Position numbers and translations under genes: made by a program
Notes under the pieces: model-generated
The model's input: the letters and a program-made list of their open reading frames with translations, nothing else
Told to the model about the DNA's origin: nothing
Databases searched by the model: none
In this document: one piece after another, positions 1 through 26,821 of the stretch
How positions within the stretch are numbered: position 1 is the stretch's first letter
Layout: every line of letters begins with the position of its first letter
From: an uncultured Spirochaetota bacterium
Lineage (GTDB): Bacteria; Spirochaetota; Brevinematia; Brevinematales; JAOACQ01
Length of the DNA stretch: 64,000 nt
Direction: 5' to 3'
NCBI GenBank assembly: GCA_963768055.1
Contig: CAVYGN010000002.1
Location: 1,568,001-1,632,000, forward strand

Positions 1-344
1 TTTGAAAGAAACATCGTATGTTTACTTTCTACTGTTTTCAAATAAGCCGCAACTTTTATTTCCGCATTTACATCCTTCTTTAATACTTTTATCGTTTTGT
101 TGTTAATCCACCCCAATACTTCTTCAGCTTTATCAAGTAAAAGCCTAGCCTTACCCTTTTTTGCAGTAATCGATTCTGCTTGTGTCATCCTTTTATCCAT
201 AACTTCAAATCTCTCAAATGTTCCGTCCAGGCGAATAATAAGATCAATAGAAAACGGCTCGTCTTTAATAGCGTCGTGCACCAGTTTCTTACTGGCGTTT
301 TCATTTCTGATTTTCTTACCTAGCTCACTTAATTCTTTAATCAT
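1..344 (-). CDS. cas8c: Type I-C Cascade large subunit Cas8c/Csd1, N-terminal part (runs off window start)
   Basis: Not in ORF track. Manual translation from ATG at 344 (ATGA overlap with cas5 stop): MIKELSELGKKIRNENASKKLVHDAIKDEPFSIDLIIRLDGTF...KKGKARLLLDKAEEVLGW, open to position 1. Position directly after cas5c. Confidence 0.8.
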   Translation of the reverse strand, partial: MIKELSELGKKIRNENASKKLVHDAIKDEPFSIDLIIRLDGTFERFEVMDKRMTQAESITAKKGKARLLLDKAEEVLGWINNKTIKVLKKDVNAEIKVAAYLKTVESKHTMFLS

Positions 345-1066
345 AATGCAGCCCTTTGTACCTCTTCATTTTCCTCAATTTGGTTGAAAGCGTATATTTT
401 AGAAGATATTAAAGAATCTTCCGGTGGCCTAATATGGCTGGACAACATCATTTTATCGTTTTCCGGAACTTCACAGTTCATTATACCATTTTCAATTTTT
501 ACATCATAGAAGAAGAGTGGGGAAGGTTTACCGGAATTATCATAGAAAATATCAAAGAGCATGCTTCCGATGGGAATAACTTCTTCTATTGTTTTTTCAG
601 TTCCATCTGTTTCCATAAATTCAGCAGAAAATTCCCTTGTTCCCAGATATGGGCGTCGCCAGCACTGGCCTTTTTTTATGCGTCTTCGGAACATTTCCAC
701 ATACTTTTTAGGAGGGTTTTTATCATTATATTCTTTCTGGAATATAGAAGCTTCAATAATATATTCGACATCCTTTAAAACAATGCTGTTTCTCTGGGCC
801 CTTTTTTCCTCAATAATTATTGGATTTTCTCCCTGCTTTGAATTGATTTCATTCCGTTTCACAGAATAAAACCGCACTAATTTCAAAACAGAAATCCTTC
901 TAACATACCAAATAAATTCCGGTTTCCATAATATTGAATCGAGAATACCACGCGCTGCGGAAGGTGTCATACATGGATAAGTCATTCTTTCCACTTTAAG
1001 ATCTGGACGTGTAAAACAGGCAAAATCACCTGTCAATTTGACTTTCACAATCTCTTTATCCAACAT
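341..1066 (-). CDS. cas5c: Type I-C Cas5c (Cas5d), crRNA-processing subunit
   Basis: GDFACFTRPDLKVERMTYPCMTPSAARGILDSILWKP and PYLGTREF motifs of Cas5d. Confidence 0.95.
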   Translation of the reverse strand: MLDKEIVKVKLTGDFACFTRPDLKVERMTYPCMTPSAARGILDSILWKPEFIWYVRRISVLKLVRFYSVKRNEINSKQGENPIIIEEKRAQRNSIVLKDVEYIIEASIFQKEYNDKNPPKKYVEMFRRRIKKGQCWRRPYLGTREFSAEFMETDGTEKTIEEVIPIGSMLFDIFYDNSGKPSPLFFYDVKIENGIMNCEVPENDKMMLSSHIRPPEDSLISSKIYAFNQIEENEEVQRAAL

Positions 1067-1080
1067 AAACCCTCCTCCTA

Positions 1081-3255
1081 TTATACAATTAATATATCCG
1101 CTGTCATTGGTTCGACGGAAATTCCTGTTTCTCTGTTATAATTACCATACCAAATTTTAAAACCATGACGGTTTTCCTGATAATTTTCTTTGTTTTTTAT
1201 CAAAAAATCCGGATAAACTTGCACCATATAAGGCTGGATTTTTTCCCAGTCGTCCCGGTTCATATAAACCAGCTTATCCAGATCATTTGCAAGCTTGTTG
1301 CTTGCATCATTGTAATTATAAATAAAAAGTCCTTCAGTCGGTGTTTCGATCAGACGGTATGAGTTTGCTACTGTTTCAAAATTCATATCTTTTCGTGACT
1401 TATCGATATTTTTTGCATCAATATCTACAAAAAGGCTTACTACTTGATTGTAGTAGACCTCAAAAAATGAATGTTCATACAAGGGTGTAAGATTATCTCT
1501 GATTTTATCCATAACAAAATTCGCTAACGATCCATAGAGCCTGTCAGGCATTCTGCTGTCCAACAACCTGAATAAATAAACCTGGCCTTTTTCAGACATT
1601 TTCCCTTCCCGGTTACAACGTCCGGCAGATTGGATAATGGATTCAAGCGGCGCTATTTCACGGAAAACAAAAGGAAAATCGAAATCCACACCGGCTTCAA
1701 TAAGTTGAGTTGAGGAAACAATGATCTTTCTGTTATTTGCCAGATCTTCCCGGATCAATCGGATAACTTTTTTCCGATGATCCGGGCACATTCCTGTAGA
1801 TAAATGATAAAATTTATCAAAATTTCCAGCACTTTTTACATTATCAAAAAATAAACGTGCTGATTTCTTTGTATTGAAAACACAAAGGCAAGATTCTTTG
1901 TTTAAAGTTTCAGATACCAATTCTTCCAATGAAATTTCATCAAATCCCCGAATAATATTATAATCAACCCTGCGTAATTTATTAAATAACATCTCTGGGT
2001 TTTCAACTAAGGATTGAATGTTTTCAATGCCATCAAATCTATCGCGTTTTTCAAATGCCGGCAATGTTGCAGTACAAAATAAAAATGATGTATTCATAAT
2101 ATTTTGAATATTTTTCAGCATAGTCAATGTTGGTTGTATCAATTCTTTGGGAATGCTTTGCACTTCATCGAAGATCACAACTGATTCAGCTATATTATGT
2201 ATTTTTCTACACCGTGCAGGTTTATTACTGAATAACGTTTCGAAAAATTGAACAGTCGTTGTAACGATAACAGGATAATCCCAGTTTTCACAGGCGAGCC
2301 GCTTTGAATATTCAATTTCCTGTGTGTCTTCATCAGTACTTATTCCCTGATTGTAGCTTGAATGATGTTCTAATACCGCTTGATCTCCAAAAATGCCCTT
2401 AAGAATCTGCGCTGTCTGGTCAATAATGTTGATAAACGGCAGGACAACAATAACCCGTTTCAATTTATTCGCCTTTGCATGATTAAGAGCCCATAAAAAT
2501 GATGTTAATGTTTTGCCCATACCTGTTGGGAGGTTCATAGAATAAAAACCAATAGGTTTAGAGGCCTTCGAAATCGAATAATCTCGTGCCTGATTACGAA
2601 GTTTATTTAATTCACCATCTTTGGGTTTTTTATTTAATTCATCTTCCAGCAGATGGATCATAGCATCAATATTAAGTGTTTCTTTACTCCTTTTTATTTC
2701 ATCTTCCGGATGATAGAATGATTCGGTATTCAGCCAGTCTGCATCAGTCAAGGCGCTGAAAAGATAGCGGACAAACAATTCCCGTTCAAAAGATTTGCCT
2801 TCTTCATCCATATCTTTAAATTTAGGACTGCCAATTTCTAAATTTTGTTCCGGTAACTGTAATTCATTTATAAAGTTTTTATAATGTTCCGGATGTTTTT
2901 TTATTTCGACAGAATATTGATTCATATCATTTTTCCAGTCAGGTACATCAATCAAACCTTTGTGATGGCCATTTACAGCAAGAGAAATCTCGCGAAGATT
3001 CTTCTTTTTTGCCAGGGCAGCACCCCAAGAAGCATGTGGTACACTCCCCCGCCTGCCGCCATTTATTAAATAGTTTTGAAATTCCGGCTGATATTTGCCA
3101 AAATCATGAAGCACTCCTGCAATCCTAAAATTTTGGGCTTGTTCTTTGTTTATAGCAAATGATTCTGCAATTTCAGATGTTTTTTTTAAATGTTCTGATA
3201 GAAGCTGCCATTCAGATTCTTGAGTATTTTCTTTTGTATGGGCATAGAATATCAT
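1081..3255 (-). CDS. cas3: Cas3 HD nuclease-helicase
   Basis: YAH...HDFGK...GHH HD domain; PTGMGKT, DEVQ, TAT, QSAGRCNR helicase motifs. ATG at 3255 preferred over GTG 3267 because of an AGGTG RBS. Confidence 0.95.
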   Translation of the reverse strand: MIFYAHTKENTQESEWQLLSEHLKKTSEIAESFAINKEQAQNFRIAGVLHDFGKYQPEFQNYLINGGRRGSVPHASWGAALAKKKNLREISLAVNGHHKGLIDVPDWKNDMNQYSVEIKKHPEHYKNFINELQLPEQNLEIGSPKFKDMDEEGKSFERELFVRYLFSALTDADWLNTESFYHPEDEIKRSKETLNIDAMIHLLEDELNKKPKDGELNKLRNQARDYSISKASKPIGFYSMNLPTGMGKTLTSFLWALNHAKANKLKRVIVVLPFINIIDQTAQILKGIFGDQAVLEHHSSYNQGISTDEDTQEIEYSKRLACENWDYPVIVTTTVQFFETLFSNKPARCRKIHNIAESVVIFDEVQSIPKELIQPTLTMLKNIQNIMNTSFLFCTATLPAFEKRDRFDGIENIQSLVENPEMLFNKLRRVDYNIIRGFDEISLEELVSETLNKESCLCVFNTKKSARLFFDNVKSAGNFDKFYHLSTGMCPDHRKKVIRLIREDLANNRKIIVSSTQLIEAGVDFDFPFVFREIAPLESIIQSAGRCNREGKMSEKGQVYLFRLLDSRMPDRLYGSLANFVMDKIRDNLTPLYEHSFFEVYYNQVVSLFVDIDAKNIDKSRKDMNFETVANSYRLIETPTEGLFIYNYNDASNKLANDLDKLVYMNRDDWEKIQPYMVQVYPDFLIKNKENYQENRHGFKIWYGNYNRETGISVEPMTADILIV

Positions 3256-3315
3256 ATTCGTTAACACCTATAAGGCCCAGTACAAGCATCCGTGCTATTT
3301 ACTGAAAAGTAGGGC

Positions 3316-3981
3316 CTAATTTATTCCCAGTATTATATTGGATTTTCTGATACTATCCTGTATGTCTTTATTCGAGTATTTCAAATATACCAATGTATTC
3401 ATAATGTTTGCATGGCCCAGGATTGTTTTTACCTGGACTAGATTAACGCCGCTATTTAACAGCTGTATTGCCCTGGAATGTCTTAAGGTATGAAGATGGG
3501 CCAGGTCCTGATACTCCGTTCCCAGGATTGAAACAATATATTTTTTTAACGCCTTGTTGGCAGCCTGAATGGAAATCGGCTTGTTTCCTGAATTTTTAGC
3601 AAAAAGATAATCTGTTTTGATAAGTATTTTTAATTTTTCATACATCAGGATCCGGTTGATCAGAGAATTCGAAAGAGTAAGGACGCGCACTATGTTTTTA
3701 TTTCTTCTTTTCAACGTGGCCAGTTTTACTGTTTTGTTATAGAAATCGATATCATGAATTTTTACTTGAAGGACCTCGCTGATCCTGGCGCCGGTTTCAA
3801 AGGAAAATGAAAAAAGCATCTTATGGAATTCGTTAGTGATTCCATCGAGTAATTTAATAATCTCTGATTCATTAAGGTACTTTATCTCTTCTTCATAGTA
3901 ATTTTTCCAGGATGATTTATACTCCACAAGTTCAGTTTTGTTATGCTTAAGCTTTTTATTTTCATAAATTACTGCATGCAT
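3316..3981 (-). CDS. Short tyrosine recombinase (putative TnpI-like resolvase of Tn-A)
   Basis: ETGARISE, HTLRHS, LGH, VYL catalytic motifs; likely start MHAVIYEN at 3981 with GAGGTG RBS; lies between the IRs. Confidence 0.85.
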   Translation of the reverse strand: MHAVIYENKKLKHNKTELVEYKSSWKNYYEEEIKYLNESEIIKLLDGITNEFHKMLFSFSFETGARISEVLQVKIHDIDFYNKTVKLATLKRRNKNIVRVLTLSNSLINRILMYEKLKILIKTDYLFAKNSGNKPISIQAANKALKKYIVSILGTEYQDLAHLHTLRHSRAIQLLNSGVNLVQVKTILGHANIMNTLVYLKYSNKDIQDSIRKSNIILGIN

Positions 3982-3995
3982 TAGCCCACCTCGCT

Positions 3996-4121
3996 GGTTA
4001 AACTTAAATTGTAAATGAAACTTTCCGATAATAATTTTATCGTTTTCAAGCAAAATATGGAAGAAAATCGGGTTAAAAAAATTAGAAAAGTTTAACTTAT
4101 AATATGTTTCTTAAACTTTTT
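3996..4121. promoter_or_regulatory. Candidate resolution site / divergent promoter region of Tn-A
   Basis: Inverted repeat AAAAGTTTAA-N15-TTAAACTTTT at 4086-4120 plus further TTAAACTT-like copies near 3998 and 4016, between recombinase and tnpA. Confidence 0.4.
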
Positions 4122-4148
4122 CATGATAAATTAAATTCGGGGGTTTAC

Positions 4149-7118
4149 ATGAAAAAAAACTGGGAATTGGATGAATTAATCGAACATTTTACCTTTCTTC
4201 CAAACGAGCTTTCACTTATAGGCAACAAAACAGGAGAGACCAGACTCGGTTTTGCAGTCATCTTTAAGTATTTTCAACAAGAGGCCATATTTCCGAATTC
4301 AAAATCAGATATTCCAAAGGTTGTTATTGATTATATATCCAAACAAGTAAAAGTCGCTGGAGACCTATATGATAAATACGATATCAATAGCAGAACCTTC
4401 TTTAATCATAAAGCACAAATAAGGAAATTTTTCGGGTTTCGAGAACCAACTACAAGGGATACGAATGAAATGGCCACATGGCTTGAAAAGCAAGTCCTTT
4501 ATAACAATTTTGTTTTAGACCGAATAAAGGTTGAAGCATACAAACACTTCCGGGAATTACATATCGAGCCGCCTACTGACGAAAGAGTTGACCGTTTAAC
4601 TAGGTCGGCTATAGCTTCTTTTGAAAACCAATTTTTCAGAGATATTTACCAAAAGATACCCACTGAGTGCTTGTCAAAGATGGATTTATTGATTAATAAC
4701 CTTACATCATACGATGAAAACGAACAAGATTACAGTATTAATAAAGAAGTTATTTCTTTTAGCGACCTGCGTAACGATCCTGGTCGAGTCGGTTTGGAAA
4801 GCGTTTTTAAAGAATTGGGTAAGCTCCAGACGATCCGGCAATTGGGATTACCTGTAGATCTGTTCAACAATATCCCCCAAAAGGTGCTGAATAGATATAA
4901 ATTCCGGGCTGTTTCAGAAAAGCTTCCGGAACTTCGCCGGCATCCCGAACAACTCAGATATACGATCCTGGCTGCCTTTTTTTGGGTCAGGGGCAGAGAG
5001 ATAACCGATAATTTAATTGAATTACTAATCCATATTATTCATCATATCGGGGTCAGGGCCGAAAATAAAGTTGAAAAAGAACTTATTGATGATTTCAGAC
5101 GAGTCAATGGCAAAACAAATATTCTTTTCCAGATGGCTGATGCAGCCCTTGATAATCCAGATGGTATAGTCAGGCAAGTACTGTTTCCAGTCGTCGGTGA
5201 AAACACATTAAAAGCATTGGTAAAAGAGTATAAAAGCACCGGCTCAGCATATCAACTGAAAGTATATACGATAATGAGAGCATCTTATAGCCGTCATTAT
5301 CGCCGGATGGTTCCTGAATTACTCGATAATCTTACCTTCTGTTCTAATAATGATGTTTACAAGCCTATAATAAGGGCTTTGGATTTAATTAGGAAATATA
5401 ATGAATATGGGACAAGGTTCTTTGCAGATTTTGAAGACATTCCTATCGATAATGTAATTAAGACCTCAATGAAGGAGTTGATAATCGAGAAAGATAATAA
5501 ACGTCAGGAACGCATTAACCGAATCAATTATGAAATAGTAGTTTTACAGGCGCTTCGGGATAAACTACGTTGTAAGGAGATATGGGTTGTTGGGGCTGGA
5601 AGGTATAGGAATCCCGATGAAGATTTACCTATCGATTTTGAAGAACACCGGGAAGAACACTACAGGGCCTTAAAACAGCCTTTAAATCCATCTGAATTCA
5701 TTGATAAAATCCGCCAAAATATGATTGCTGGATTATCAAAACTCGATGCAGGTATGCCTAAAAATACTAAAGTCCAGATTACCAAAAGAGGTAATGGATG
5801 GATAAAAGTCTCTCCTATTGAGGCCCAGCCGGAACCTTTAAACCTCGCAATGCTCAAAACCGAAATAACAAGACTATGGCCTATGACAAATCTTCTCGAT
5901 GTGCTTAAGGAAGCCGATCTAAGGCTCAATTTTACAGATCATTTTAAAACAATGGCCGCTCATGAAAGATTAGACAGAACTTTAATCCAAAAACGTTTAA
6001 TATTGACTTTGTATGGAATGGGAACGAATACGGGTCTAAAACGAATAGCGGCTGGAAATCGTGGTGAAACCCATCAGGACCTGTTTTATGTCCGGAGAAA
6101 ATTCATCAATAAGGATAACTTGAGAGATTCCATATCATCAGTGGTTAACTCCATCCTTAAAGTCCGAGTTAAAGACGTTTGGGGAGATGGGACTACAACC
6201 TGTGCCTCAGATTCAAAAAAGGTAGGAGCATGGGACCAAAACCTGATGACTGAATGGCATATACGTTATAGAGGACGAGGTGTAATGATCTATTGGCATG
6301 TTGAGAAAAAATCTGCTTGTATTTATTCTCAATTAAAAGCATGTTCTTCATCTGAAGTGGCTGCCATGATAGAAGGGCTTTTAAAGCATTGCACTGATAT
6401 AAATATCGAAAAGAATTTTGTTGATACTCATGGCCAAAGCGAGGTTGCTTTTGCTTTTTGCCATCTTCTCGGATTTAACCTTATGCCCAGGTTTAAAAAC
6501 ATTGGCAGTCAAAAGCTTTACAGGCCAGATTCTGGTATGGCAGACTCCTACCAAAATTTACAGCCGGTATTAACACGGCCAATTAACTGGGAGCTTATAC
6601 GTCAGCAGTATGACCAAATGGTAAAATATGCTACAGCTCTGCGTTTGGGAACAGCCGAGACTGAAGCGATCCTGAAACGGTTTACCAGGAATAACTTAAA
6701 ACATCCCACTTATCTCGCTTTTGCCGAACTTGGAAAGGCCATAAAAACTATATTTATCTGCGAGTATTTGAATTCCGAAGAACTTCGACGCGAAATTCAT
6801 GAAGGACTTAATGTTATTGAAAATTGGAACTCCGCCAATTCTTTTATTTTCTATGGTAAGGGAGGCGAGATCTCAACCAACAGGATAGAGGATCAGGAAC
6901 TAGCAATTTTATGCCTTCATCTGCTGCAAAATTGCCTAGTTTATATCAACACGCTTATGATTCAACAAATATTATCTCAAAATAAATGGCATGATTTAAT
7001 GACAGCAGAAGATTTCAGGGCGCTTACGCCGCTTATTTATAATCACATTAATCCTTATGGGCATTTTAACCTGGATATGAATGAAAGAATTCCTATAGAG
7101 ACTGATATTGCTGCTTAA
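4149..7118 (+). CDS. tnpA: Tn3-family DDE transposase (intact, ~990 aa)
   Basis: RLGFAV N-terminus, [31 protein letters not shown]-terminus; stop just before the right IR. Confidence 0.95.
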
Positions 7119-7163
7119 TACAATCTACTTTTCAGTACATAACACGAATGCTCCCATGGGGCC

Positions 7164-9338
7164 TACAAGAGTATAATCAACAACCCCCTTTCTAAGCCCA
7201 AAATATTTGGGTGAATGGCGGGAATTGATAGTATTAATCCGGGTCTCATATTTCTGACCATCGCTGCTGGAATGAATAACTTCATCAATATCGTAATACC
7301 TGAAGATCGGCAGATTGGCTGTAGCGTTGCTGACACGGTCGTTTGCTTCTTTCAGGGTTTCCAGGCGAATGAAATTATCTGACGCGGCAGCAAGCGTGGA
7401 ATAGCTGATATCTGAAGTTTCCCCCATCGTCCCCAATCCCATGTTGGTTCCCCAGGCAATTATGCAGGCAACAAGGATACGGTTGTCCCCAACTTGCTTT
7501 GTATAGCGCCCCAGGACGTGCTCAAATACTTCAAGAAACTGGCAATGCTGGTTAACAAAATGCATGACGCTCCCAAGTTCAATCTGCTTTAACGCGTCAA
7601 AAAACGGGTTGTTTATAGATTCATCGTCATCATCATTGGAATATTGAAGCACCCAACGGCTTTGTTTTCCACGTTTATTGATTTTGAAATGTTCATTTTC
7701 TCCGGATGCGATACGCCGGTTGACCTCTGCAATTCGGGATTCAAGCTTTTGTTCAAGTTCTGCCAAATGTTCCCTGACAGGTCGATCAAAGATAGTAAGG
7801 CTAATATCGGATATCAGTTTTTCTTTATTCTGCCATTGCTGGTCGTCTATCAGATCATCTTCAAGGCTCCGGAACCGTACGCTCTCACGGCAAAAGATAT
7901 CGCCGGCTTCCAGACTGTTTCGCAAAAGGCGATAAACCTGAAATTCATAGCGGTCCGGCGATACAATATTTTGATGGTAGATATAACGCTTTACACTGTC
8001 AGAAATATACTGGGTTGGCAAAGTTTCTGAAGAATATTGTCCAAGTGGCTTGTTTTTGATAAACGCCAGTTTTATGAAGTCAATAGCCTCAATCAGTGAA
8101 TCATTCGTCAAGGGGGACGCAAAATCAACCATTAGTAATATTTGCCGCAGGTGTCGTTTAAACTGCAGGGACAGTTTATCTATGTGCTCCCATTGCAAGG
8201 CAGTTTCATCGAATTTTGCATCGGTAGTAATTTGATAGGCTAAAGTCTCAAGCTTTTGCTGCTCCAGGATAGCAAATGCTATTTCCTGGACATAATGGAA
8301 AGGTGTGTCAGCCGCAATACTATCATCGGTGAATATCTTAAGCACCTGGCCGGCCTTTTTCAAGTTCTGGTTGTTTTCCACCAAATACTCATATACCCGT
8401 TCCTTAGCCGCGAATTTTGAAGCATCTACGTAACTCCTGACATTGTAAATAAGGGTGTTAATAAGGTTGTCATGCACCTGCTGAAAACGATGATAGATGT
8501 AACATAATAAATAGACATAGACCAGCCACTCATTAAGTCTCTTTAGCCTAAACACAGAGTAATAGTCTATCAATGAGGCATAGTATTTAATGCTTTCGTT
8601 AGAAATGCCCAATTCCGGCAATAGCTTTTGAATAAGCCGATACAAAGGCTGTATTCGTTTGCCCCGGTCAATCTCACGGTTGATTTCGCCAAGGGTAAAA
8701 TCTCTTGGTTCGTGTTTAAGTTGCGTGATCTCATATAAACCGGTTGAATCTTCTAACAGCCGTTTCATATCTTCAATATCCGATTGCTTTAGGTTATTCC
8801 GCATTATTGTGATTAAACGGGCTTGTTCATAAGTGATTGCCCTTCCTATCATTACCCTCATGTATCTGTAGCCGGGAACCACGATACGTTGACTGTTTAA
8901 ATAATTCATGATTTCACGGAAAATATAGACCGGTTTACTGCAGAGCGCTGCTGCCCTACGCGCTTTTTCCTCCAGATTCTTCCTTTCTTCAGAATCACAA
9001 TCACGATAATTGAACAGTTTAAGAATAAAATTCTGCTGTTTTAGCCGAGTATCTTTATCAATTGGACTAAAATCAATGATTTCATTGTTGCTGAAATGTT
9101 GTCTCAGCACATACTGGGAATCCTCTGCAACTTCATTGAAATTGAATGTAAAAAATAAATGCTTTGCTTTAAAATACCCGAGTTGTAGAACGAAATAAGC
9201 CCGGGATCTGATGGAATGTAACATCTGTAACAACTCTTTCTCTGGTTGAGTTAGGGAAAAATAACTATGCCTCTCCTCATCCGTAAAACAGGGTCTGCCA
9301 TAAATGGCTTCTACTTCATCTTCTCCAAGTATTTTCAA
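7164..9338 (-). pseudogene. tnpA: Second Tn3-family transposase (Tn-B), C-terminally truncated by Tn-A
   Basis: Tn3 motifs through HSSSDGQK...GVVDYTLV. The frame then runs into the Tn-A IR, which supplies GPMGAFVLCTEK. The later DDE residues are missing. Confidence 0.9.
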
Positions 9339-17586: not shown

Positions 17587-17618
17587 TTTTATTTGCCCCT
17601 GATTACACCGATGCTCCC

Positions 17619-17914
17619 ATGAGGCTTATTGTTGTAGTTTTTATTGATAAAAACAGCCCGATCGGCAGATTATACCAAAAAAAGAAAAAAGAAAGGCTAT
17701 TTTACAGGTATGCTCATTTTTATTCAGTCAAGAAAGTTACAAATAAATTGAAAAAAGCCGGTTTCACCGGATTTTCATACCGACAGACCCTAAACAATTT
17801 AAATAATGAAACAGTCCAAACATTCGAGGAAGGTTATGGGAAGGGTGGTTTTGTTGTCATAAAAGGAAATAAAATTAAAAAATATTATCATTCCCTTGAA
17901 ACTCCTTTAGATAT
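17619..17914 (+). pseudogene. C-terminal fragment of a SAM methyltransferase
   Basis: FIDKNSPIG...FYRYAHFYS...GKGGFVVIKG, with no N-terminal SAM motif; ends at an IR-like site. Confidence 0.5.
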
Positions 17915-17942
17915 GGGGCCAGTACACAAAACGGAAAAAATC
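17915..17942 (+). repeat. Partial Tn3-type IR
   Basis: GGGGCCAGTACACAAAACGGAAAAAATC, lacking the final ...CTAAG. Confidence 0.55.
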
Positions 17943-17944
17943 CT

Positions 17945-17991
17945 TTGACAATAAGTTGGTCTTTAGATATAATTAGCATATGCTAATTATA
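17945..17991 (+). promoter_or_regulatory. Consensus promoter overlapped by a perfect 24-bp palindrome
   Basis: TTGACA(17945)-N17-TATAAT(17968); TATAATTAGCATATGCTAATTATA at 17968-17991. Confidence 0.8.
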
Positions 17992-18001
17992 AAGGGTTAT
18001 T

Positions 18002-18466
18002 ATGCCTCGTCCTTTTAAATGCAGGAAAGTTGATTACAGCCCTGAAACCACCTTTTTTAAACCTGCAGGGATACCAATAAACGTGCTAGAAGTCATAGTT
18101 CTTTCGCTGGACGAGCTTGAAGCCGTTCGCCTCGCTGATTTTAAAGGTCTGTATCAAGAGGAAGCCGCTCAAAAAATGGCCATTTCAAGACAAACCTTCG
18201 GAAATATCGTTTCTTCCGCGAGAAGCAAAATTGCGGACGCGCTTATAAACGGCAAAGCAATAAAAATCGAAGGCGGATTTGTTGAGGCGATTGAAAGAGA
18301 ATTTATCTGTCCTGACTGCAAGCATAAATGGAGTTTACCCTTCGGCACGGGCCATCCGGCTAAATGTCCGGATTGCCGGAGTATCAATATACATCGCAAT
18401 CAGGAAGATCATGGACAATCATACCATGACAGAGGATGCAATAATCAGCATAATGGGAATCATTAA
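18002..18466 (+). CDS. DUF134 (UPF0251) HTH protein with C-terminal zinc ribbon
   Basis: MPRPFKCR, ELEAVRLADFKGLYQEEAAQKMAISRQTF, CPDC..CPDC. Confidence 0.9.
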   Translation: MPRPFKCRKVDYSPETTFFKPAGIPINVLEVIVLSLDELEAVRLADFKGLYQEEAAQKMAISRQTFGNIVSSARSKIADALINGKAIKIEGGFVEAIEREFICPDCKHKWSLPFGTGHPAKCPDCRSINIHRNQEDHGQSYHDRGCNNQHNGNH

Positions 18467-18479
18467 ACAGGAGGATTAT

Positions 18480-18848
18480 ATGATATTAGCTATCCCTACG
18501 GAAAACATGAGCGGGGAAATATCAACCATTTACAGTCACTTCGGAAGCGCTCCATTTTATGCCTATTACAATACGTATGATGAAAAACTGGATTTTGTCA
18601 ACAACGGGAACAAGGATCATGAACACGGCCGGTGCCAGCCGGTAGATGAATTAAGGGAAAAGAAGGTTGAAGCCGTCGTTTGTAACGGAATGGGGCTTCG
18701 TGCTATCAACAATCTTAATTCGCTTGGCATTAAAGTCTATTTTGCCGGAAACGCACTTAATATCGCGGAAGTTGTAAATATGCTTAAAAATGATGAATTA
18801 AAGGAGCTTCTTCCGGTCAACGCATGTATGCGGCATAATTGCCGCTAA
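18480..18848 (+). CDS. NifB/NifX-family (FeMo-co binding-like) protein
   Basis: HFGSAPFY, HEHGRCQP, VVCNGMGLRA. Confidence 0.85.
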   Translation: MILAIPTENMSGEISTIYSHFGSAPFYAYYNTYDEKLDFVNNGNKDHEHGRCQPVDELREKKVEAVVCNGMGLRAINNLNSLGIKVYFAGNALNIAEVVNMLKNDELKELLPVNACMRHNCR

Positions 18849-18929
18849 AAAGACTGAAATAATTGATCGCCGCAATAGCCCCAATCCGGTCTGAAAATAG
18901 GCCGGTGTACCATGAAAAAACCATGCGGT

Positions 18930-19949
18930 TCATTTTAGCACCCAATTGAACAAGTAGCCGATAATAATTATTGTAACTATCATTATGCTTGTAAATACAG
19001 CTAAAAGTCTCGGCTTTAAAACTTTTCTTAAAATAATCATTTCGGGGAAGCTTATGGCCGTGATGGACATCATAAAAGCAAGAGCTGTCCCCATCGGTAT
19101 TCCAAGCCTTACCAGTTCGTTTACAATCGGTATGGTGCCTGCCGCGTTGGAATAAAGAGGAATACCGACAATGACAGCCACCAGGACAGCGAAAGGATTG
19201 TTTTTACCGACATATTGCGAAAGCCACCCGGTAGGAGCCCAACCATGCATGACGCCTCCTATGGCTATACCGATTAAGACAAAAGGCCAAATTTTATGCA
19301 AAATTTCAAGGACATAGTTTTTCGCTCCGAGTAATCTTTCCTTCCAATACAGCTTTTCCATTAAAGAATCATTCATTTTTATTTTATATACATATTCCTC
19401 TACATAACGTTCCATCTTCAAAACGCCGATAGTTAAACCTCCGACGATTGCTATAATAACCCCCGTCGCGATATAGAGAAGGGCTATCTTCCATCCGAAA
19501 AGCCCCCATAGCATTACAAGCGCCACTTCGTTCACCATAGGGGAAGATATTAAAAAGGAGAAGGTTATTCCAAGAGGGACGCCTGCTTCGAGAAATCCGA
19601 TGAAAACAGGAACCGCGGAACATGAGCAAAATGGAGTTACAATCCCTAAAAGCGCAGCCAGGATATTTCCGGGAAAACCTTTCGCTTTACCTTCACCAAG
19701 GAGTTTTTTAGTGCGCTCGGGCGGAAAATAACTTCTTATGATCGAAACTATGAAGATAATAACAGTCAGCATAAGAAATATTTTCATCGTATCATAAAAG
19801 AAGAAATTCACTGCCCCGCGGTAATGATCCGAATTAATGATACCTGTATCAATTCGGAATAATTCCATTAAAAACCTGAAAAAGGTTGTCAGCCAAACAC
19901 TGAAAATTGCCGCAAGTTTATTTAAAACCCAATTTATCCCTGAAAACAT
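18930..19949 (-). CDS. ArsP/DUF318-family permease
   Basis: TPFCSCSAVP, SFLISSPMVNE, GIPLYSNAAG, ISFPEMIILRKVLK. Confidence 0.9.
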   Translation of the reverse strand: MFSGINWVLNKLAAIFSVWLTTFFRFLMELFRIDTGIINSDHYRGAVNFFFYDTMKIFLMLTVIIFIVSIIRSYFPPERTKKLLGEGKAKGFPGNILAALLGIVTPFCSCSAVPVFIGFLEAGVPLGITFSFLISSPMVNEVALVMLWGLFGWKIALLYIATGVIIAIVGGLTIGVLKMERYVEEYVYKIKMNDSLMEKLYWKERLLGAKNYVLEILHKIWPFVLIGIAIGGVMHGWAPTGWLSQYVGKNNPFAVLVAVIVGIPLYSNAAGTIPIVNELVRLGIPMGTALAFMMSITAISFPEMIILRKVLKPRLLAVFTSIMIVTIIIIGYLFNWVLK

Positions 19950-19979
19950 TGAATGGCCTCCAAATTAAACTCAATATCA

Positions 19980-20342
19980 CTAAACCTTCTGTCCAATATT
20001 GATAGCCACCTTTTCAATGACTTCAGGAGTAATTTCTGTTTTACCCTTTTCAACTCCAAATTCTGTGGTAATAAAGTGTTCGAAAGGAAGCCCCAACTTT
20101 TCAAAAATATTTTTCCCACATGAAACTGGACATCCGTCAATCACGACATTTTTTTCAGCACATCTGGCTGATTCTACAAAACCAGAAAGTTCAGCTCCCA
20201 TAGCCGCAAGGCAAGTCATTTTACCGATATCGTCTTTCATCATTTTCCTTGCTATAGCATCCGCCAGATATCCCGTATTAGCGGCGCCGGAACAAGCATA
20301 GATCAATTTAATTTCCTGGCTTCCGCAACAGCAATCTGTCAT
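19980..20342 (-). CDS. DGC-domain putative zinc-binding protein
   Basis: YACSGAANTG, MTCLAA, IDGCPVSC. Confidence 0.85.
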   Translation of the reverse strand: MTDCCCGSQEIKLIYACSGAANTGYLADAIARKMMKDDIGKMTCLAAMGAELSGFVESARCAEKNVVIDGCPVSCGKNIFEKLGLPFEHFITTEFGVEKGKTEITPEVIEKVAINIGQKV

Positions 20343-20343
20343 A

Positions 20344-20583
20344 TTATTTTACTCCTTTTAGAATATTTATGATCTGTTCTCTATTTAATACCCTTCCCGT
20401 GCTTTTGACAACACCGTCAACGGCAAGAGCAGGAGTCGACATCACACCATATTCCATAATTTTTCCAATATCAGTTACTTTTTCTATCTCCGCTTGGACT
20501 CCACTAGCCTTTATCGCTTCCTTAGCATTTGCTACCAGCTGTTTGCAATTCGGACAACCTGAACCTAAAATCTGAACCTTCAT
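20344..20583 (-). CDS. Small redox-active disulfide protein (MTH895/thioredoxin-like)
   Basis: ILGSGCPNC, YGVMSTPALAVDG. Confidence 0.9.
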   Translation of the reverse strand: MKVQILGSGCPNCKQLVANAKEAIKASGVQAEIEKVTDIGKIMEYGVMSTPALAVDGVVKSTGRVLNREQIINILKGVK

Positions 20584-20745
20584 AAATCACCTCTTTGGAT
20601 TAAATTTTCTCTTAAAAAAAAGCAACCGAGATACATTTTTCAGAAAATTACCGCATCGACATTATGATATATGTCTAATTATAAAATCAAATATTTGCTT
20701 TGTCAAATAATTTATTTTATAATTTCTATTAAGAGGTTATGTAAA

Positions 20746-21087
20746 ATGCGAGAGTTAGTCGATCTGCTTAAAGTTCTGGCCGATGAAAGCCGTCTAAAAA
20801 TTATTTTTGCATTGGAAAAGAAACCGGCTTGTGTATGCGAATTGGCTTTTTTTTTAAAGTTGACACAAGCTACTATTTCAAGCCATCTAAAGCAGCTGCG
20901 TCAAGCAGGATTAGTCGATTATAAAAAAGACGGTAAATGGGTAGAATATTTCCTGTCTGATAATGATACATTCCGTACTATGATGACACAGTTGAAACTA
21001 TATATACCTGATAGGGACAAATTTGATTATGAAATGAATAGAATCGTCGATATAAATCGTGATAACCTGAAAAAATTATCAAAATAA
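20746..21087 (+). CDS. ArsR-family regulator, divergent from the permease operon
   Basis: ACVCEL metal/arsenite motif, ISSHLKQL, DGKWVEY. Confidence 0.9.
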   Translation: MRELVDLLKVLADESRLKIIFALEKKPACVCELAFFLKLTQATISSHLKQLRQAGLVDYKKDGKWVEYFLSDNDTFRTMMTQLKLYIPDRDKFDYEMNRIVDINRDNLKKLSK

Positions 21088-21297
21088 TTTATCAGGATTT
21101 ATTTATGGCATCCTTTGAAAATATCAAACAAGTTTTGAAAAAACTGGACCTGTCCGAGAGAGCATGCTTAATCAAATCGACGAGCATTTCAGGGAATTGA
21201 TCCATAAAAAATCATTATTTGAGGTTCCATTGGCTCTATCAGAAAAAATATTTTATAGAATCAGAATCTTTTTTAAAATATATTTCCCATATTTTAC

Positions 21298-21323
21298 ATA
21301 GTATAGGATACCGGGTATACTAT
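21298..21323. promoter_or_regulatory. CsoR/RcnR-type operator
   Basis: ATAGTATA-GGATACCGGG-TATACTAT: AT-rich inverted arms around a G/C tract, just upstream of the repressor gene. Confidence 0.65.
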
Positions 21324-21339
21324 TCAAAGAGGTAATAAA

Positions 21340-21594
21340 ATGACAGAACGAAGAAAGGAGACTTTAAATCACATCAATAGAATTCAGGGGCAGCTTAAAA
21401 CGCTGGTTCGATACATTGAACAGGAAAAAGACTGTATTGATATTGCCATTCTGGCAACATCAATAGCTAAATCGATGGACTCATTAAGATTCAGAACTCT
21501 GGAAGGGTTTATCATAAACAATTTTATGGAAAACCCTAACGATGCTGAAAAAATAAAGGCGTTGAATGAATTGATTTCTCTATATAAAAAATAA
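21340..21594 (+). CDS. CsoR/RcnR/CstR-family repressor
   Basis: INRIQGQL...KDCIDI. Confidence 0.85.
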   Translation: MTERRKETLNHINRIQGQLKTLVRYIEQEKDCIDIAILATSIAKSMDSLRFRTLEGFIINNFMENPNDAEKIKALNELISLYKK

Positions 21595-21609
21595 TCGGAG
21601 ACTTGATAA

Positions 21610-21999
21610 ATGAGTTTCCCACTGTCAATCCCGATCCTAATATTAATCGGAATAATTTCAGGCATCGTGACCGGTTTTTTCGGACTGGCGGGAGGCTTGA
21701 TAATCATCCCGGCCCTGGTTTACTTAGCCGGATTTTCACAGCAAACGGCCGTGGGGACGAACCTGTTTGTCCTTCTATTGCCTGTCAGTATAGCATCGGT
21801 TATGGAATACTATCGCAACGGACATGTGGACATTAAAGCCGGCATTATTATAGCGATCTCTCTCCTTATTTCCGCATGGATATGCTCGAAAATAGCTCTA
21901 AAGATCAATACCGCTTATTTAAAATTTGCGTTCGGTTTGTTCGTAATAGTCATGGGTGCTTATATTTCATGGACGTCTTTTATTAAATTATCAAAATGA
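21610..21999 (+). CDS. TauE/SafE (TSUP) half-size permease
   Basis: GFFGLAGGLIIIPAL, AVGTNL. Confidence 0.85.
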   Translation: MSFPLSIPILILIGIISGIVTGFFGLAGGLIIIPALVYLAGFSQQTAVGTNLFVLLLPVSIASVMEYYRNGHVDIKAGIIIAISLLISAWICSKIALKINTAYLKFAFGLFVIVMGAYISWTSFIKLSK

Positions 22000-22035
22000 A
22001 TCATATTAAGAACTAAAAATTTCAGGAGGTGTAAG

Positions 22036-23310
22036 ATGAATAAAAAAGGAATAATCGCCAGGATTTTTGCCGATGGCGGGATAATAGTGTTTTTTATCAT
22101 GGCTTTTGAATTTATGATAATGATAAGCCCTTTCGCTTTTTTCTTTTACTCCGTTTTCAATCCGTTTTTTAACTTCCTGGGCCAATACACTTCTACAAGA
22201 TGGCTGACCTCCTTCTTTTTGCCGCATATGATATTGCCGCCGACCGTTTTCCTGAAAACCATCCGCGTAGCCGGTTCCTTTCTGTTTATCCTGGGGCTGA
22301 TGTCTTTTGTAGTATGCGCGCTGCAGGTATATCTGGGAAAGATTTTCAAATGGGGTATAGCCGACAAGGGGATATATAAAATAATCAGGCATCCTCAATA
22401 CCTTTCACTCGCTTTATGGGGCATCGGCATGAGCATATTGTGGCCTCGATTCATCGTCCTTGCCACTTTGTCGATCATGTTCATTCTTTATTATTTCCTT
22501 GCAGTAGACGAGGAACGCCGGATGTTGAATCAATACGGCGACAGCTATAAAAAATATATGGAAAATACCGGCATGTTTTTTCCGATGTTTATCGATAGAT
22601 GGTTTAAACCTATTGATACGCTAATCCCGAATAAAATCCTGAAAAATATAACGATTCCTCTTTCGCTCATAATCATCGTCATGGTATCAGGCTTCGCCCT
22701 TTATAATATTACCTTGAATTCCCTTGAAATCAAATCAATGAGAAATTTCAGCCTGGTATCGATGCTTCCGGAAGACTCCGTATTGATGTCGACCGTTGCC
22801 GATGAACTGGAAAAAGACCATAGCCAGGGTAAGATAGATCAATTAGAAGAAAACAAGGTTTACCTCGGCTATCTAATGCCGGTCGATTTCATTATGCAGG
22901 GTATGATAGCAGATACCGAGGAAAACTTTCATCTGTACAAACAGCATCATACCGTTTCTTTGATTAATGACTGGATTTTACATCCTTTTCAGCATTTGAG
23001 GGCGTCGCCTGTATTAAACATGGCTCTGATGAACCACGTTGATCCGGCTGTCGCAAGGAGGCATCATTGCCCCCTCGGCATAAACGACCAGTCCCTTAAT
23101 TGCAACGACTGTCCATACAGAAGGGTGATCTTTACCGAAATTCAAATCAACGGTACAAATCATATCCAGGGGGAACAGTTATTGGCTTTCGATACGATTA
23201 AAATACCATCGTTTTATGCTGATATTGATACAAGGACCGGTAAAATAATAAACCTGAAAGCTGTGAAAAAATCCACGGCCTGGGAAAATGTTCCCACCCC
23301 TGCTTATTGA
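22036..23310 (+). CDS. ICMT/PEMT-like membrane methyltransferase with Cys/His-rich C-terminal domain
   Basis: GIYKIIRHPQY and EERRM..YGDSYKKY motifs; C-terminal RRHHCPLG..CNDCPY. Confidence 0.75.
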   Translation: MNKKGIIARIFADGGIIVFFIMAFEFMIMISPFAFFFYSVFNPFFNFLGQYTSTRWLTSFFLPHMILPPTVFLKTIRVAGSFLFILGLMSFVVCALQVYLGKIFKWGIADKGIYKIIRHPQYLSLALWGIGMSILWPRFIVLATLSIMFILYYFLAVDEERRMLNQYGDSYKKYMENTGMFFPMFIDRWFKPIDTLIPNKILKNITIPLSLIIIVMVSGFALYNITLNSLEIKSMRNFSLVSMLPEDSVLMSTVADELEKDHSQGKIDQLEENKVYLGYLMPVDFIMQGMIADTEENFHLYKQHHTVSLINDWILHPFQHLRASPVLNMALMNHVDPAVARRHHCPLGINDQSLNCNDCPYRRVIFTEIQINGTNHIQGEQLLAFDTIKIPSFYADIDTRTGKIINLKAVKKSTAWENVPTPAY

Positions 23311-23369
23311 TCAACCTTAAAGAAAGATTTGAATTGAATATTATAAACTTAAGTGCCTTGAATTATTAA

Positions 23370-23405
23370 CTTAGCGCTATTTTTCCCGAATTCTGCGTTC
23401 ACCCC
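23370..23405 (-). repeat. Tn3-type terminal IR (36 bp)
   Basis: Reverse complement GGGGTGAACGCAGAATTCGGGAAAAATAGCGCTAAG; 110 bp from the CRISPR trailer. Confidence 0.8.
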
Positions 23406-23515
23406 TATTTGGGGTAACAACATCATAGCTGTAACCAGGGGCAAAGTAGCTTTCAATTAATCTACCGGATGATTTTTTTATGTTCCGTGAATTAAACATT
23501 CGGATTACCTTAATG

Positions 23516-24340: not shown

Positions 24341-24511
24341 TGTATCTCTATAAATTACTGATAGGATATCTAATTATAAATTCATTCCCGCGAACCGGCA
24401 ATCCAAGAACAAAATATAACCCCAGAGATACTGTTTATTTCAATAATTCACCACAGTTCTAACACCGCGATACTCCCGCTCTTATTATGTTTCCTATAGC
24501 TTCGCGGAAAC
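24341..24511 (-). promoter_or_regulatory. CRISPR leader
   Basis: AT-rich non-coding stretch between cas2 and the first repeat, with CGCGAA / TTCGCG motifs. Confidence 0.75.
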
Positions 24512-24799
24512 TCAAACCATCAATAATCCTTCCGGATCATAACTTTTTTTTGCCCCAATCTGTTCAACACGATTTTTCCAGTTTGCACCAAGGAAATAAA
24601 AACGAAGACTATCGAATTCCGGCTTAATTTCATCAATCAACTCTCGGCGTAATTTAGTCCACTGTGCAGGGTCTACCAGGCATTCAAATACAGAGTATTG
24701 TACACGCTGACCATGATTTTCACAGACTTTAGCTACATGCCTGAGTCTTTTCTTTCCGTGTTCATCCTCAGCTACATCGTAACTCACCAATACCATCAT
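24512..24799 (-). CDS. cas2: Cas2
   Basis: VLVSYDV, GQRVQYSVFEC, DSLRFYFLG. Confidence 0.97.
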   Translation of the reverse strand: MMVLVSYDVAEDEHGKKRLRHVAKVCENHGQRVQYSVFECLVDPAQWTKLRRELIDEIKPEFDSLRFYFLGANWKNRVEQIGAKKSYDPEGLLMV

Positions 24800-24805: not shown

Positions 24806-25837
24806 TTACCTCCATAAAAAAGGCGGATAACCGTCCAGATCGCCCCGGATATACCTGGCCAATAAAATTGCCTGGGTATGGAACAGCAGCCCGATATGCA
24901 TATCGTCATCCACAAACGGGTGATGAACCGCGTCCTGTTTTCGCTTCTGATAAGCTGCCAGAACTGTCTTTCTTGCAGAATTATTCATCAGCACAGCGCC
25001 GTTATCCAATACTTTAAATTGACCGGTCTCAATCTGCCTCAAATTGATAAGCGACAGTACCAGCCGGTCGGCAAAATAGGGCCTGAATTCTTCCATTAAA
25101 TCAAGGGCAAGCGAAAGCCTTCCAGGACGGTCGCGATGAAGAAATCCGACAGCAGGGTCCAGTCCGACACATTCCAGTGCAGATCTCATATCATGATAAA
25201 GAAGGGTATAGATAAAAGACAATAAAGCATTCACACGGTCCAGCGGCGGACGGCGGGAACGCTCGTGAAAGATAAAATCAGTCTTTTGTGCTACAATCAG
25301 TTCATTAAAAACACTGAAATAACGCCGGGCTGCGTCCCCTTCGATACCGCGCAGAATTTCCGGGTCACTGCTATTTTTTGCATGATCCATGGAACGTTCC
25401 AGCTCATTTACAGCATTCCGTAAAGTATCTTCATTGATTTTCCCGCTGTGATCGCGGAGGGCCCGTTGAAGGACCGTACGGCAATTAGAGATTTTCCCAA
25501 TGACAATATTGCGGACAATCGCGGAGCAATTTACCGGATCGTCAGTAATGCGGTATTGTGAACGCCGCAGAAGAACATTTCCGGAAACCGGGCCCTGTAC
25601 CCTAGCCAAAAATTTACCGTATTCTGATAGAAAGCTTATGCTTACACCGCATTTTGCGCACTGTCCAAGGAGAAAAGGGCTAATACCGATATTACCGAAA
25701 CAGACAATACCGGAAAGGTTGATTAGTGGAAGCTGGAGCTTGGTTTCTTTGCCCAATTTTACCACCAATGTTTCACCCTGCTTTTTCAGATACATCTTTT
25801 GTGTTGTTACAAACAGTGTATTCAGAAGCCTTTTCAT
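24806..25837 (-). CDS. cas1: Type I-C Cas1
   Basis: MKRLLNTLFVTT, LRGIEG, RSRRPPLD, LDLMEEFR, YPPFLWR. Confidence 0.97.
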   Translation of the reverse strand: MKRLLNTLFVTTQKMYLKKQGETLVVKLGKETKLQLPLINLSGIVCFGNIGISPFLLGQCAKCGVSISFLSEYGKFLARVQGPVSGNVLLRRSQYRITDDPVNCSAIVRNIVIGKISNCRTVLQRALRDHSGKINEDTLRNAVNELERSMDHAKNSSDPEILRGIEGDAARRYFSVFNELIVAQKTDFIFHERSRRPPLDRVNALLSFIYTLLYHDMRSALECVGLDPAVGFLHRDRPGRLSLALDLMEEFRPYFADRLVLSLINLRQIETGQFKVLDNGAVLMNNSARKTVLAAYQKRKQDAVHHPFVDDDMHIGLLFHTQAILLARYIRGDLDGYPPFLWR

Positions 25838-25838
25838 T

Positions 25839-26483
25839 CTAAACCCCCGGTCCTTCGGTTATTTCGGATTGGATCATCCGGTCCATATACCGGCCCACCT
25901 CTTTCTTCTTTCCCAATACTTCCGGCATACATTGTTCCTTCAATGAACAGGATTCACAACGTTTGGTATAAACGGGGGGCGGAGTTTTCCCACTTTCAAG
26001 CATTGTCCGTGTTTCGCGGATTACATTCTGAGTCAGTTTCCGCAAGGCTTCATCTAAGACAACACGCAACCTTTTTTTAATGCGGAAATAGTAGATAAAA
26101 CCCTCTTCAACTTTGCTGTGCAGCATTTCCTCTATACATAGGGCTTGCGCGCAAAGTTGAACGGTGTCCATGTCTTTCAGCTTAGGTTTTCCACGCTTGT
26201 ACTCCAGAGGAATAAATAGCCCTTCCGGCATCTCCATAACACAGTCTGCCTGACCTGTAATTCCCAATTCCAGCGACCGAAGCGGCATACCGAAAATTCT
26301 GCGGCAATCGGGCCTGGTCTCTACAGCGTTATGATGCGCTCTTTGATGTAAGCATCTTCCTTCTGCTGTTAGAGCATTTTCTAACCACTCGCCTTCAATA
26401 TGAATGAGTGCACATCGTCGGGGACAAAAAATATAATGAACAAGTGCAGAAATCATAATTAAATCCGATTCTATATAGGCCAT
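25839..26483 (-). CDS. cas4: Cas4
   Basis: FCPRRCAL, EYKRG, QLCAQALC, CESCSLKEQC Fe-S cluster. Confidence 0.97.
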   Translation of the reverse strand: MAYIESDLIMISALVHYIFCPRRCALIHIEGEWLENALTAEGRCLHQRAHHNAVETRPDCRRIFGMPLRSLELGITGQADCVMEMPEGLFIPLEYKRGKPKLKDMDTVQLCAQALCIEEMLHSKVEEGFIYYFRIKKRLRVVLDEALRKLTQNVIRETRTMLESGKTPPPVYTKRCESCSLKEQCMPEVLGKKKEVGRYMDRMIQSEITEGPGV

Positions 26484-26537
26484 ATATTGATCCCTCTTAT
26501 TCCAAAAATTTCATTCCATTTTTGTTGGAATCAAATG

Positions 26538-26821
26538 TTATACTATACTTAGTCCAGTTTTTTTCAGCATTTCATTATCAAGTATCCCTACCATAAACCC
26601 GATAAAACTATCATATTTATAATCCCATTTATATAAACCTGGTTTTTGCGAAAATTCTTGAATTCCTAATTCTTTAAGACGATATCCCCAAATCTGCACA
26701 GAGCCATTCTGAATATCTCTCCAATCAATAGATACATAATTTTCTATTTTTATGATGAGTGTTTTATCAACAACAACAATATAAGTATCATTACTAATCA
26801 CCTTAAATTCTTTTTCTACTT
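26538..26821 (-). pseudogene. Hypothetical ORF, probably 5'-truncated by Tn-C
   Basis: The frame (VEKEFKVISNDTY...) stays open from the annotated GTG up into the IR at 26822; no RBS. Confidence 0.45.

Follow-up and report, generated by a model that had tools for sequence, protein, structure and literature searches.

The type I-C (Dvulg/Csd) CRISPR-Cas system on the megaplasmid of Nitratidesulfovibrio vulgaris Hildenborough has the canonical gene order, lacks cas6 and has 32-nt repeats ending in ATTGAAAC. All of these features are found again in a locus (locus A) at the left edge of a stretch of 64,000 nucleotides from an uncultured Spirochaetota bacterium, hereafter the window (G000:C2:1568001-1632000; C2 and C1 are the two contigs of the assembly, whose completeness is 94.75%). 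Unlike the N. vulgaris system, locus A has a transposon in the place of the native region upstream of cas3, and a second I-C module, devoid of effector genes (locus B), is found 20 kb away. With good confidence, these are two separate type I-C loci, one complete (A) and one effector-less (B), lodged in one island of about 50 kb made mostly of Tn3-family transposons. What is unusual about this ordinary pair of I-C loci is the setting; it is not an immune operon split and rewired by a transposon.

The setting has described counterparts of its own. The transposon that adjoins cas3, Tn-1, resembles the Tn4430/Tn5401-type members of the Tn3 family, which combine a transposase with the tyrosine recombinase TnpI: it has a DDE transposase of about 1000 aa spanning the full NF033527 profile, an adjacent tyrosine recombinase and inverted repeats (IRs) of about 38 bp. 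In Tn4430 the recombinase and transposase genes are co-oriented, whereas those of Tn-1 are divergent, with a gap of 50-122 bp, and the Tn-1 IRs, which match each other at 30/38 positions, end in GGCCCC and not in the GGGG that is the norm for that type and for the clade of Tn-1. The nearest plasmid relatives of Tn-1 are on Bacillales plasmids, are 60-66% identical and have an adjacent tyrosine recombinase gene; the Tn3-family members seen here make 5-bp duplications. Non-autonomous derivatives of the family include the mobile insertion cassettes (MICs) of Xanthomonas and the Tn3-derived inverted-repeat miniature elements (TIMEs). A 387-bp element on C1 is like them in having two IRs, no transposase, a 5-bp duplication and known empty sites, and unlike them in holding a CRISPR array end and a recombinase stub, for which the titles and abstract openings of the literature searched offered no parallel. 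Tn7-like CRISPR-associated transposons (CASTs) have CRISPR-Cas genes and an array between transposon ends, as would a 12.3-kb unit around locus A, if it is real. In contrast to CASTs, whose CRISPR-Cas is nuclease-deficient and without adaptation genes, its transposase is of the Tn3 family and not TnsB (no dedicated search for Tns proteins was made), and the HD-helicase Cas3 and cas1, cas2 and cas4 are intact. The unit thus does not belong with the CASTs; nothing points to RNA-guided targeting, and CRISPR-Cas would be cargo, not transposition machinery. No report of CRISPR-Cas as cargo of a Tn3-family transposon was found in the same titles and abstract openings, where Tn7-like elements came nearest, which hints only weakly that such a case has yet to be reported.

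Locus A is a complete I-C system on the minus strand, with cas3-cas5c-cas8c-cas7-cas4-cas1-cas2, a leader and a five-repeat array, extending from position 3255 of the window to 4.8 kb left of it (Table 1). The DNA compared included the window, the 20 kb to its left (L001) and other genomes (G001, of the same genus, G002, G003, G006 and G008), together with 80 transposase-centred loci and 80 cas3-centred metagenome loci. Profile scores were judged against NCBIfam cut-offs, which all seven proteins of locus A exceed for I-C or general Cas families. The Cas8c frame crosses the window edge without a stop codon and encodes 616 aa (TIGR01863, 306.8 bits against a cut-off of 218.65, profile positions 21-587 of 588); downstream of it, in the same orientation, are cas7 (Csd2, TIGR02589, 303.7 bits against 182.25), cas4 (147.2 bits), cas1 (Cas1c, 497.7 bits against 385), cas2 (78.5 bits), the leader and an array of five identical 32-nt repeats (C2:1563185-1563480). 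Cas3 is a single open reading frame (ORF), with cas3_HD at residues 23-181 and cas3_core at residues 247-572. Its start is likely the ATG at 3255, because the homologue in G008 begins with MTFYAHTKEN, compared with MIFYAHTKEN here. The operon has no Cas6 gene, and its genes abut without an additional ORF from cas3 to cas2. Locus A thus has what type I-C calls for: Cas8c/Csd1, Cas5c and Cas7 without Cas6, an HD-helicase Cas3, and cas4-cas1-cas2 with a neighbouring array. The order cas3-5-8c-7-4-1-2 was kept, within contig reach, in 80/80 metagenome loci with relatives of Cas3 A (at most 60% identical), where matches were obtained for cas5 in 72, cas8c in 66, cas7 in 55, cas4 in 40, cas1 in 34 and cas2 in 32. 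Beyond the array, 17 bp from its last repeat, there is a relic, 85% identical, of the end of an insertion sequence (C2:1563037-1563166; L001 15037-15166) that has ten near-identical copies in the genome.

Locus B consists of cas4-cas1-cas2 and a 13-repeat array and, judged by its proteins and repeats, belongs to another I-C lineage, with no effector genes in this assembly. Identity between the two loci is 55% for Cas4, 65% for Cas1 and 76% for Cas2, and 6 of the 32 repeat positions are different; for Cas1 B, identity is 79% with G006 and 75% with G008, in both cases higher than with Cas1 A. Locus B is homologous to the loci of G006 and G008 from the start codon of cas4 onwards, and comparison with these loci revealed no cas7 remnant upstream of cas4 B. 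A second effector set was not found either: in this genome, tblastx with the cas3-cas7 region of G006, whose effector genes are 28-31% identical to those of locus A, matched locus A only, and the Cas3 A query hit a single place. With cas3, cas5c, cas8c and cas7 of its own lineage not found in the 94.75%-complete assembly, locus B does not by itself qualify as a type I-C system. In its array, the spacers measure 33-35 nt and spacers 4 and 5 are identical; the two repeats at the trailer end have a perfect 7-bp stem, and the 11 leader-proximal ones share a C-A mismatch in the stem. In G001, a stretch at C22:42795-45151 has 34 matches to the B-type repeat, mostly at 87-91% identity; Cas1 and Cas3 gave no match in G001 with the queries used.

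Both CRISPR loci are part of one accessory island of about 50 kb, made largely of Tn3-family transposons. They are assigned to it because G001 is colinear with C2 up to position 1552080 and again from 1602396, with only about 220 bp in the place of these 50.3 kb, and because Cas3 A has no close relative in four genomes of the genus: its best match there is 36% identical, and two of the four have no match. G002 and G003 have the same island flanks, near each other. A tRNA gene was not detected in window positions 1-40000 or in the 20 kb to the left, and the island edges have no tRNA mark. The left part of the island includes a tandem repeat of 117 bp with 3.2 copies and 83% matches (L001 5138-5508). 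GC content was considered as a sign of separate origins and rejected, the gap between the genome (41.5%) and the genes of locus A (35-45%) and locus B (40-46%) being too small.

The most peculiar feature of locus A is its upstream border. Tn-1 is an intact Tn3-family transposon with a tyrosine recombinase, and it ends 18 bp upstream of the cas3 ATG; its IRs, of about 38 bp, are both of types found after tnpA in relatives. The initial annotation had reported this IR next to cas3 with only the ribosome-binding site retained, which is what we see: the AGGTG motif is separated from the IR by 4 bp. Likewise, the statement that no obvious terminator stands between the recombinase gene and cas3 agrees with our count of zero terminator-like sites in 3000-4400. 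The recombinase gene reads in the same direction as cas3, with its stop codon 60 bp before the cas3 ATG. The loss of native DNA before cas3, also proposed there, is supported by the structure as far as the upstream region goes, with 18 bp left, and the DNA upstream of cas3 in G008 is unrelated and without a transposon. The ORF there (108 aa) has no homologue in the 80 cas3-centred loci or in this genome. Because just 18 bp of non-transposon DNA precede the ATG, any cas3 promoter must sit in Tn-1 DNA, and read-through from the recombinase promoter is a plausible driver of cas3 transcription, in our view the likeliest. The IR region is predicted to fold no better than shuffled sequences (z = 0.06). 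Upstream-gap statistics for cas3 in 50 metagenome loci were discarded, several of the supposed upstream ORFs being Cas3 N-termini. An empty allele for the Tn-1 insertion is not demonstrable, as the nearest Cas3, that of G008, is 74% identical over residues 1-724 and those of the metagenome at most 60%, too distant for this purpose. Locus A is thus a complete and apparently intact I-C system without upstream DNA of its own, whose expression, if any, would depend on sequences of an intact Tn3-family transposon, and the junction is suited to studying, as a natural case, whether a transposon can control a defence operon.

The 20 kb between the two loci are a stack of transposons and their cargo and not one insertion into a single locus. 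Instead of the single insert that had been annotated, there are Tn-1, a truncated Tn-2, metal-resistance cargo with solitary IRs and an IS1595-family copy. Tn-1 interrupts the transposase gene of Tn-2, and the C-terminal remainder of this gene was found nowhere in the genome. The sequences flanking Tn-1, TATAA on the left and TACAA on the right, agree at 4/5 positions and are not a direct duplication. From these flanks and the missing part of Tn-2 we infer a deletion-type history, in which Tn-1 would first have inserted into the Tn-2 transposase gene; an intramolecular transposition of the deletion type may then have brought it to a target beside cas3, and with that deletion the remainder of Tn-2 and the native region upstream of cas3 would have been lost and no target duplication left. 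Adjacent deletions are known for Tn3-family elements, and the lack of a clean duplication is expected if the left junction came from an intramolecular event.

The coexistence of the two lineages also bears on how array B may be used. The repeat of array A and the trailer form of the B repeat share the same predicted 7-bp stem and 5-nt loop and are identical in their last 12 nt (predicted folds of -14.0 and -15.1 kcal/mol, respectively, and -8.3 kcal/mol for the main form of the B repeat). Because of this common stem-loop and 3' end, it is plausible that CRISPR RNAs (crRNAs) of array B could be used in trans by Cascade and Cas3 of locus A. Since newly made repeats are copies of the leader-proximal repeat, the mismatch present in 11 repeats suggests that array B gained about 10 spacers after the mutation arose. 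With an effector-less cas4-cas1-cas2-array near a complete system of the same subtype, the region lends itself to asking whether I-C lineages that have diverged can share spacers. Self-targeting found no support, as matches of A and B spacers to other parts of the genome are no longer than 18 nt. The plasmid matches of both arrays are only periodic ones, in unannotated stretches of N. vulgaris plasmids, which we read as other I-C arrays.

Several observations weigh against this picture of two independent loci, one transcribed from transposon DNA and able to serve the other. First, G008 pairs A-like effector genes with B-like adaptation genes, so modules of both lineages can belong together, and a past link of the A effectors with a B-type module is conceivable. 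The effector genes of locus B could lie in unassembled DNA, the assembly being 94.75% complete. None of the spacers has a protospacer in the genome or in phage and plasmid records (whole-array searches), which leaves both arrays only putatively active. The weakened stem in 11 of the 13 repeats of array B may impair processing by Cas5c. Promoter-like sites near the cas3 junction number three against a mean of 5.1 in shuffled sequences, which is no excess. Lastly, the deletion-type history proposed above leaves a solitary perfect IR beyond array A unexplained. An inversion-type intramolecular origin of this IR, which would place the native cas3 upstream region at C2:1562745-1562893, finds neither support nor contradiction, that stretch showing no similarity to the DNA upstream of cas3 in G008. 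In G008, a leader-like stretch with CRISPR repeats is also present between cas7 and cas4 (L012 10250-10523, C27; L104 7784-8092, C19); these repeats are 1 nt off those of locus A, both contigs end in the repeat, and the cas4-cas1-cas2 genes of this genome are nearer to lineage B than to A.

Whether the two loci are or were transposon cargo is a further matter, taken up first for locus B. A 41-nt Tn3-type IR that the initial annotation had not listed, IR_B, points into array B; it is 5 bp from the IR that ends at 23405, and the array trailer is on its inner side. On C1, a 387-bp stretch (C1:116595-116981) has IR_B at both ends, inverted and identical at 41/41 positions, with a TAATG duplication on each side. 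It holds a partial repeat, a spacer, a full trailer-variant repeat and a trailer 96% identical to window positions 23404-23562, as well as the final 54 codons of a gene similar to tyrosine recombinase genes, which ends at the left IR. When 387 + 5 bp (392) are removed, the C1 flanks line up with two empty sites, one in G002 (C124) and a paralogous one at C2:2440-2630. With its paired IRs, 5-bp duplication and empty site, this is a non-autonomous Tn3-family element; CRISPR repeats and a trailer therefore lay within an element that transposed. IR_B itself is a true end of a Tn3-family element, of the clade to which Tn-1 belongs, because in at least 7 of 75 related loci the stop codon of tnpA is immediately followed by an IR_B-type sequence. 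These observations, and the GGGG end of IR_B facing away from the array with the trailer inside, are consistent with locus B, or at least array B, being the cargo of a Tn3-family transposon with IR_B ends, of which the window would hold a truncated remnant and C1 an internally deleted derivative of 387 bp. We treat this as a serious candidate and still lean slightly against it, since there is no partner IR_B right of locus B and no full-length master copy in the genome. IR_B occurs in one of 401 genomes of a phylum sample, this very one, in none of the other 34 genomes of the order searched and, as an exact 36-mer, in 0 metagenome contigs. The recombinase fragment matches Phage_integrase weakly (E = 0.0013, below the Pfam cut-off), the array end alone, and not cas4-cas1-cas2, is shown to be inside an element, and arrays are not usually present in relatives of this transposon clade.

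A comparable proposal for locus A is more doubtful. The solitary IR mentioned above (C2:1562899-1562936), which is 5.1 kb left of the window and 249 bp past array A, would make locus A the passenger of a 12,265-bp Tn3-family transposon (C2:1562899-1575163), movable by the adjacent transposase and consisting of a perfect IR, array A, cas2 to cas3, an internal diverged IR, the recombinase gene, the transposase gene and a second perfect IR. The internal IR would then be left over from a related transposon, inserted upstream of cas3 and later recombined at the resolution site. What speaks for the unit is that its outer IRs are identical at 38/38 positions and correctly inverted (43/43 with the flanks), compared with only 30/38 for the left IR of Tn-1 itself. 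Among 12 clade relatives examined for IR pairs, both ends were found in five (the left end was not found in the other seven), and four of these five pairs match at 36-38/38, in elements 4.8-8.3 kb long, and the fifth at 29/38. The left IR of Tn-1 resembles one clade IR subtype and the right and solitary IRs another, the genome has no second Tn-1 copy as a source of the solitary IR, and both loci are in an island missing from a same-genus genome. Against it stand the outer flanks, TTGTA and TACAA, which are reverse complements and not a direct target duplication; the right flank is the tnpA of Tn-2, which the left flank does not continue. The insertion sequence relic of about 100 bp between the solitary IR and array A gives the unit the look of a patchwork, and its GGCCCC termini depart from those of the clade. 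Moreover, cas genes within 10 kb were seen in just one of 80 TnpA relatives (L081) and an array-like run of at least three repeats in one other (L035), and near the Cas3 A relatives neither a Tn3 transposase nor TnpI was found in any of the 80 metagenome loci, within the available flanks. For these reasons we consider the passenger hypothesis tentative and on balance unlikely. In L081, a contig of a cyanobacterial metagenome-assembled genome (6877-13133), a transposon of the same clade, with a transposase 57% identical and an IR similar to IR_B, adjoins cas1-cas2 and is flanked by a 375-bp direct duplication (5865-6239, 13159-13535) that holds two CRISPR repeats.

Taken together, the 12.3-kb unit and the array B element raise the broader possibility that, in this lineage, Tn3-family transposons with tyrosine recombinases carry I-C modules as cargo and can move them, a proposition to which we give rather less than even credence. 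If this is true, nuclease-proficient CRISPR immunity could travel on transposons other than the Tn7-like ones, with the cas operon under the recombinase promoter of its transposon. That CRISPR DNA can lie within Tn3-family transposable units is indicated, in any case, by the perfect IRs on both sides of locus A and by the 387-bp element that transposed.

An assembly artefact, with chimeric joins at repeated transposon ends of a metagenome-assembled genome, is very improbable. The genome is 94.75% complete in two contigs, the region is dense in repeated IRs and several of its elements have no clean target duplications, all of which could favour such joins. On the other hand, both island flanks are colinear with a same-genus genome, the repeats shared by the junctions measure only 38-43 bp, short for mis-joins given contigs of 1.8 Mb, Tn-L (left of locus A) and the C1 mini element have perfect duplications, and none of the cas and transposase reading frames is broken at the joins. 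The proposal of the initial annotation, a single I-C locus that was permuted and divided by some 20 kb of Tn3 DNA, with cas4-cas1-cas2-array as the displaced 3' half of the cas3 operon, is refuted, for, despite the shared strand and subtype, the transposon ends at both edges of the 20 kb and the mixed G008 genome, the DNA left of the window, which had been set beforehand as the check, has cas8c directly followed by its own cas7-cas4-cas1-cas2 and five-repeat array, so that the adaptation modules are duplicates and the halves not complementary, with divergent repeats, no cas7 remnant upstream of cas4 B and several nested or abutting elements in between. The observations behind that proposal were accurate: the minus-strand order cas4-cas1-cas2-array followed by cas3-cas5c-cas8c is present, an IR has its outer end (23405) 110 bp from the last array repeat (23516), and a third transposon, Tn-4, begins next to the ORF upstream of cas4. 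The fallback offered along with it, of two separate loci in a region rearranged by Tn3 elements, is the reading retained here, on account of the two cas4-cas1-cas2 sets (55-76% identical) and the two repeat types.

The remaining features of the island are mostly mobile elements and their cargo (Table 1). The cation-efflux gene has an IR of its own, ending at 11935, and solitary IRs are found at 17915 and 23368-23405. The right end of Tn-4 is 199 bp from the right island edge, and Tn-L (L001 7412-12242) is flanked by a perfect TAGTA duplication.

Table 1. Features of the window, with positions counted from its first nucleotide
Feature	Position	Strand	Details
cas8c, first 114 codons	344..1	-	Runs past the left window edge; full length 616 aa
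cas5c	1066..341	-	TIGR01876, 138.9 bits (cut-off 85)
cas3, HD nuclease and helicase	3267..1081 (ORF)	-	724 aa from ATG 3255 (likely start); cas3_core 161.3 bits, cas3_HD 95.3 bits
Sole non-transposon DNA upstream of cas3, 18 bp	3256..3273	.	AGGTG ribosome-binding motif at 3269..3265
Tn-1 left IR, 38 bp	3274..3311	+	30/38 identical to right IR (32/40 in wider alignment)
Tn-1 tyrosine recombinase, tnpI-like	3316..4053	-	Phage_integrase E = 7e-25; XerA/XerD-like matches
Tn-1 Tn3-family transposase, full length	4104..7118	+	1004 aa; NF033527, 903.2 bits (cut-off 500), positions 4-953/954
Tn-1 right IR	7126..7163	-	38/38 identical to solitary IR at C2:1562899-1562936
Tn-2 transposase gene	7164..9338	-	Cut by Tn-1 after about codon 725; NF033527 positions 1-697/954
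Tn-2 remainder	9416..10931	-	Recombinase 10060..9416, PIN-like ORF 10747..10238, IR outer end 10931
Cargo and relics	10932..23405	.	Cation-efflux gene, two ArsR-type regulators, methyltransferase, Metal_resist, DsrE-like, ArsP permease, others
IS1595-family copy, 2,061 bp	12631-14691		Transposase and DUF6338 ORF; 99.85% identical to C1:361235-363295
IR_B, 41-nt Tn3-type IR	23411..23451	+	Outer GGGG end at 23411; points into array B
CRISPR array B	23516-24340	-	13 repeats of 32 nt, 12 spacers; repeat spacing 65-67 nt
Leader of array B, 171 bp	24341..24511	-	Placed by position, cas2 to first repeat
cas2 B	24799..24512	-	Cas2, 73.7 bits (cut-off 24.5)
cas1 B	25837..24806	-	Cas1c, 506 bits (cut-off 385)
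cas4 B	26483..25839	-	Cas4, 134.7 bits (cut-off 65)
ORF, 87 aa	26538..26801	-	No family match; from cas4 B to next transposon
Tn-4, Tn3-family	26822..34197	+	IRs 26822-26862 and 34159-34197 (92% pairing); tnpA 31215-34151

Inside Tn-4, after its left IR, a 168-bp piece (26947-27114) is 96% identical to the end of Tn-L, with the IR and the 3' end of the transposase gene. Small genes of toxin-antitoxin type may accompany several of these transposons: Tn-4 includes an HTH_3 antitoxin-like ORF (29821-30117), Tn-2 has the PIN-like ORF (10238-10747) and an overlapping gene pair in Tn-L (L001 11245-11875) is toxin-antitoxin-like, by eye only. Outside the island, at C2:1160990-1161517, two solitary IRs about 490 bp apart surround an ORF that is HU/IHF-like, by eye only; one of these IRs is 30/30 identical to window positions 23376-23405, and the other is of the Tn-1 type with three mismatches.

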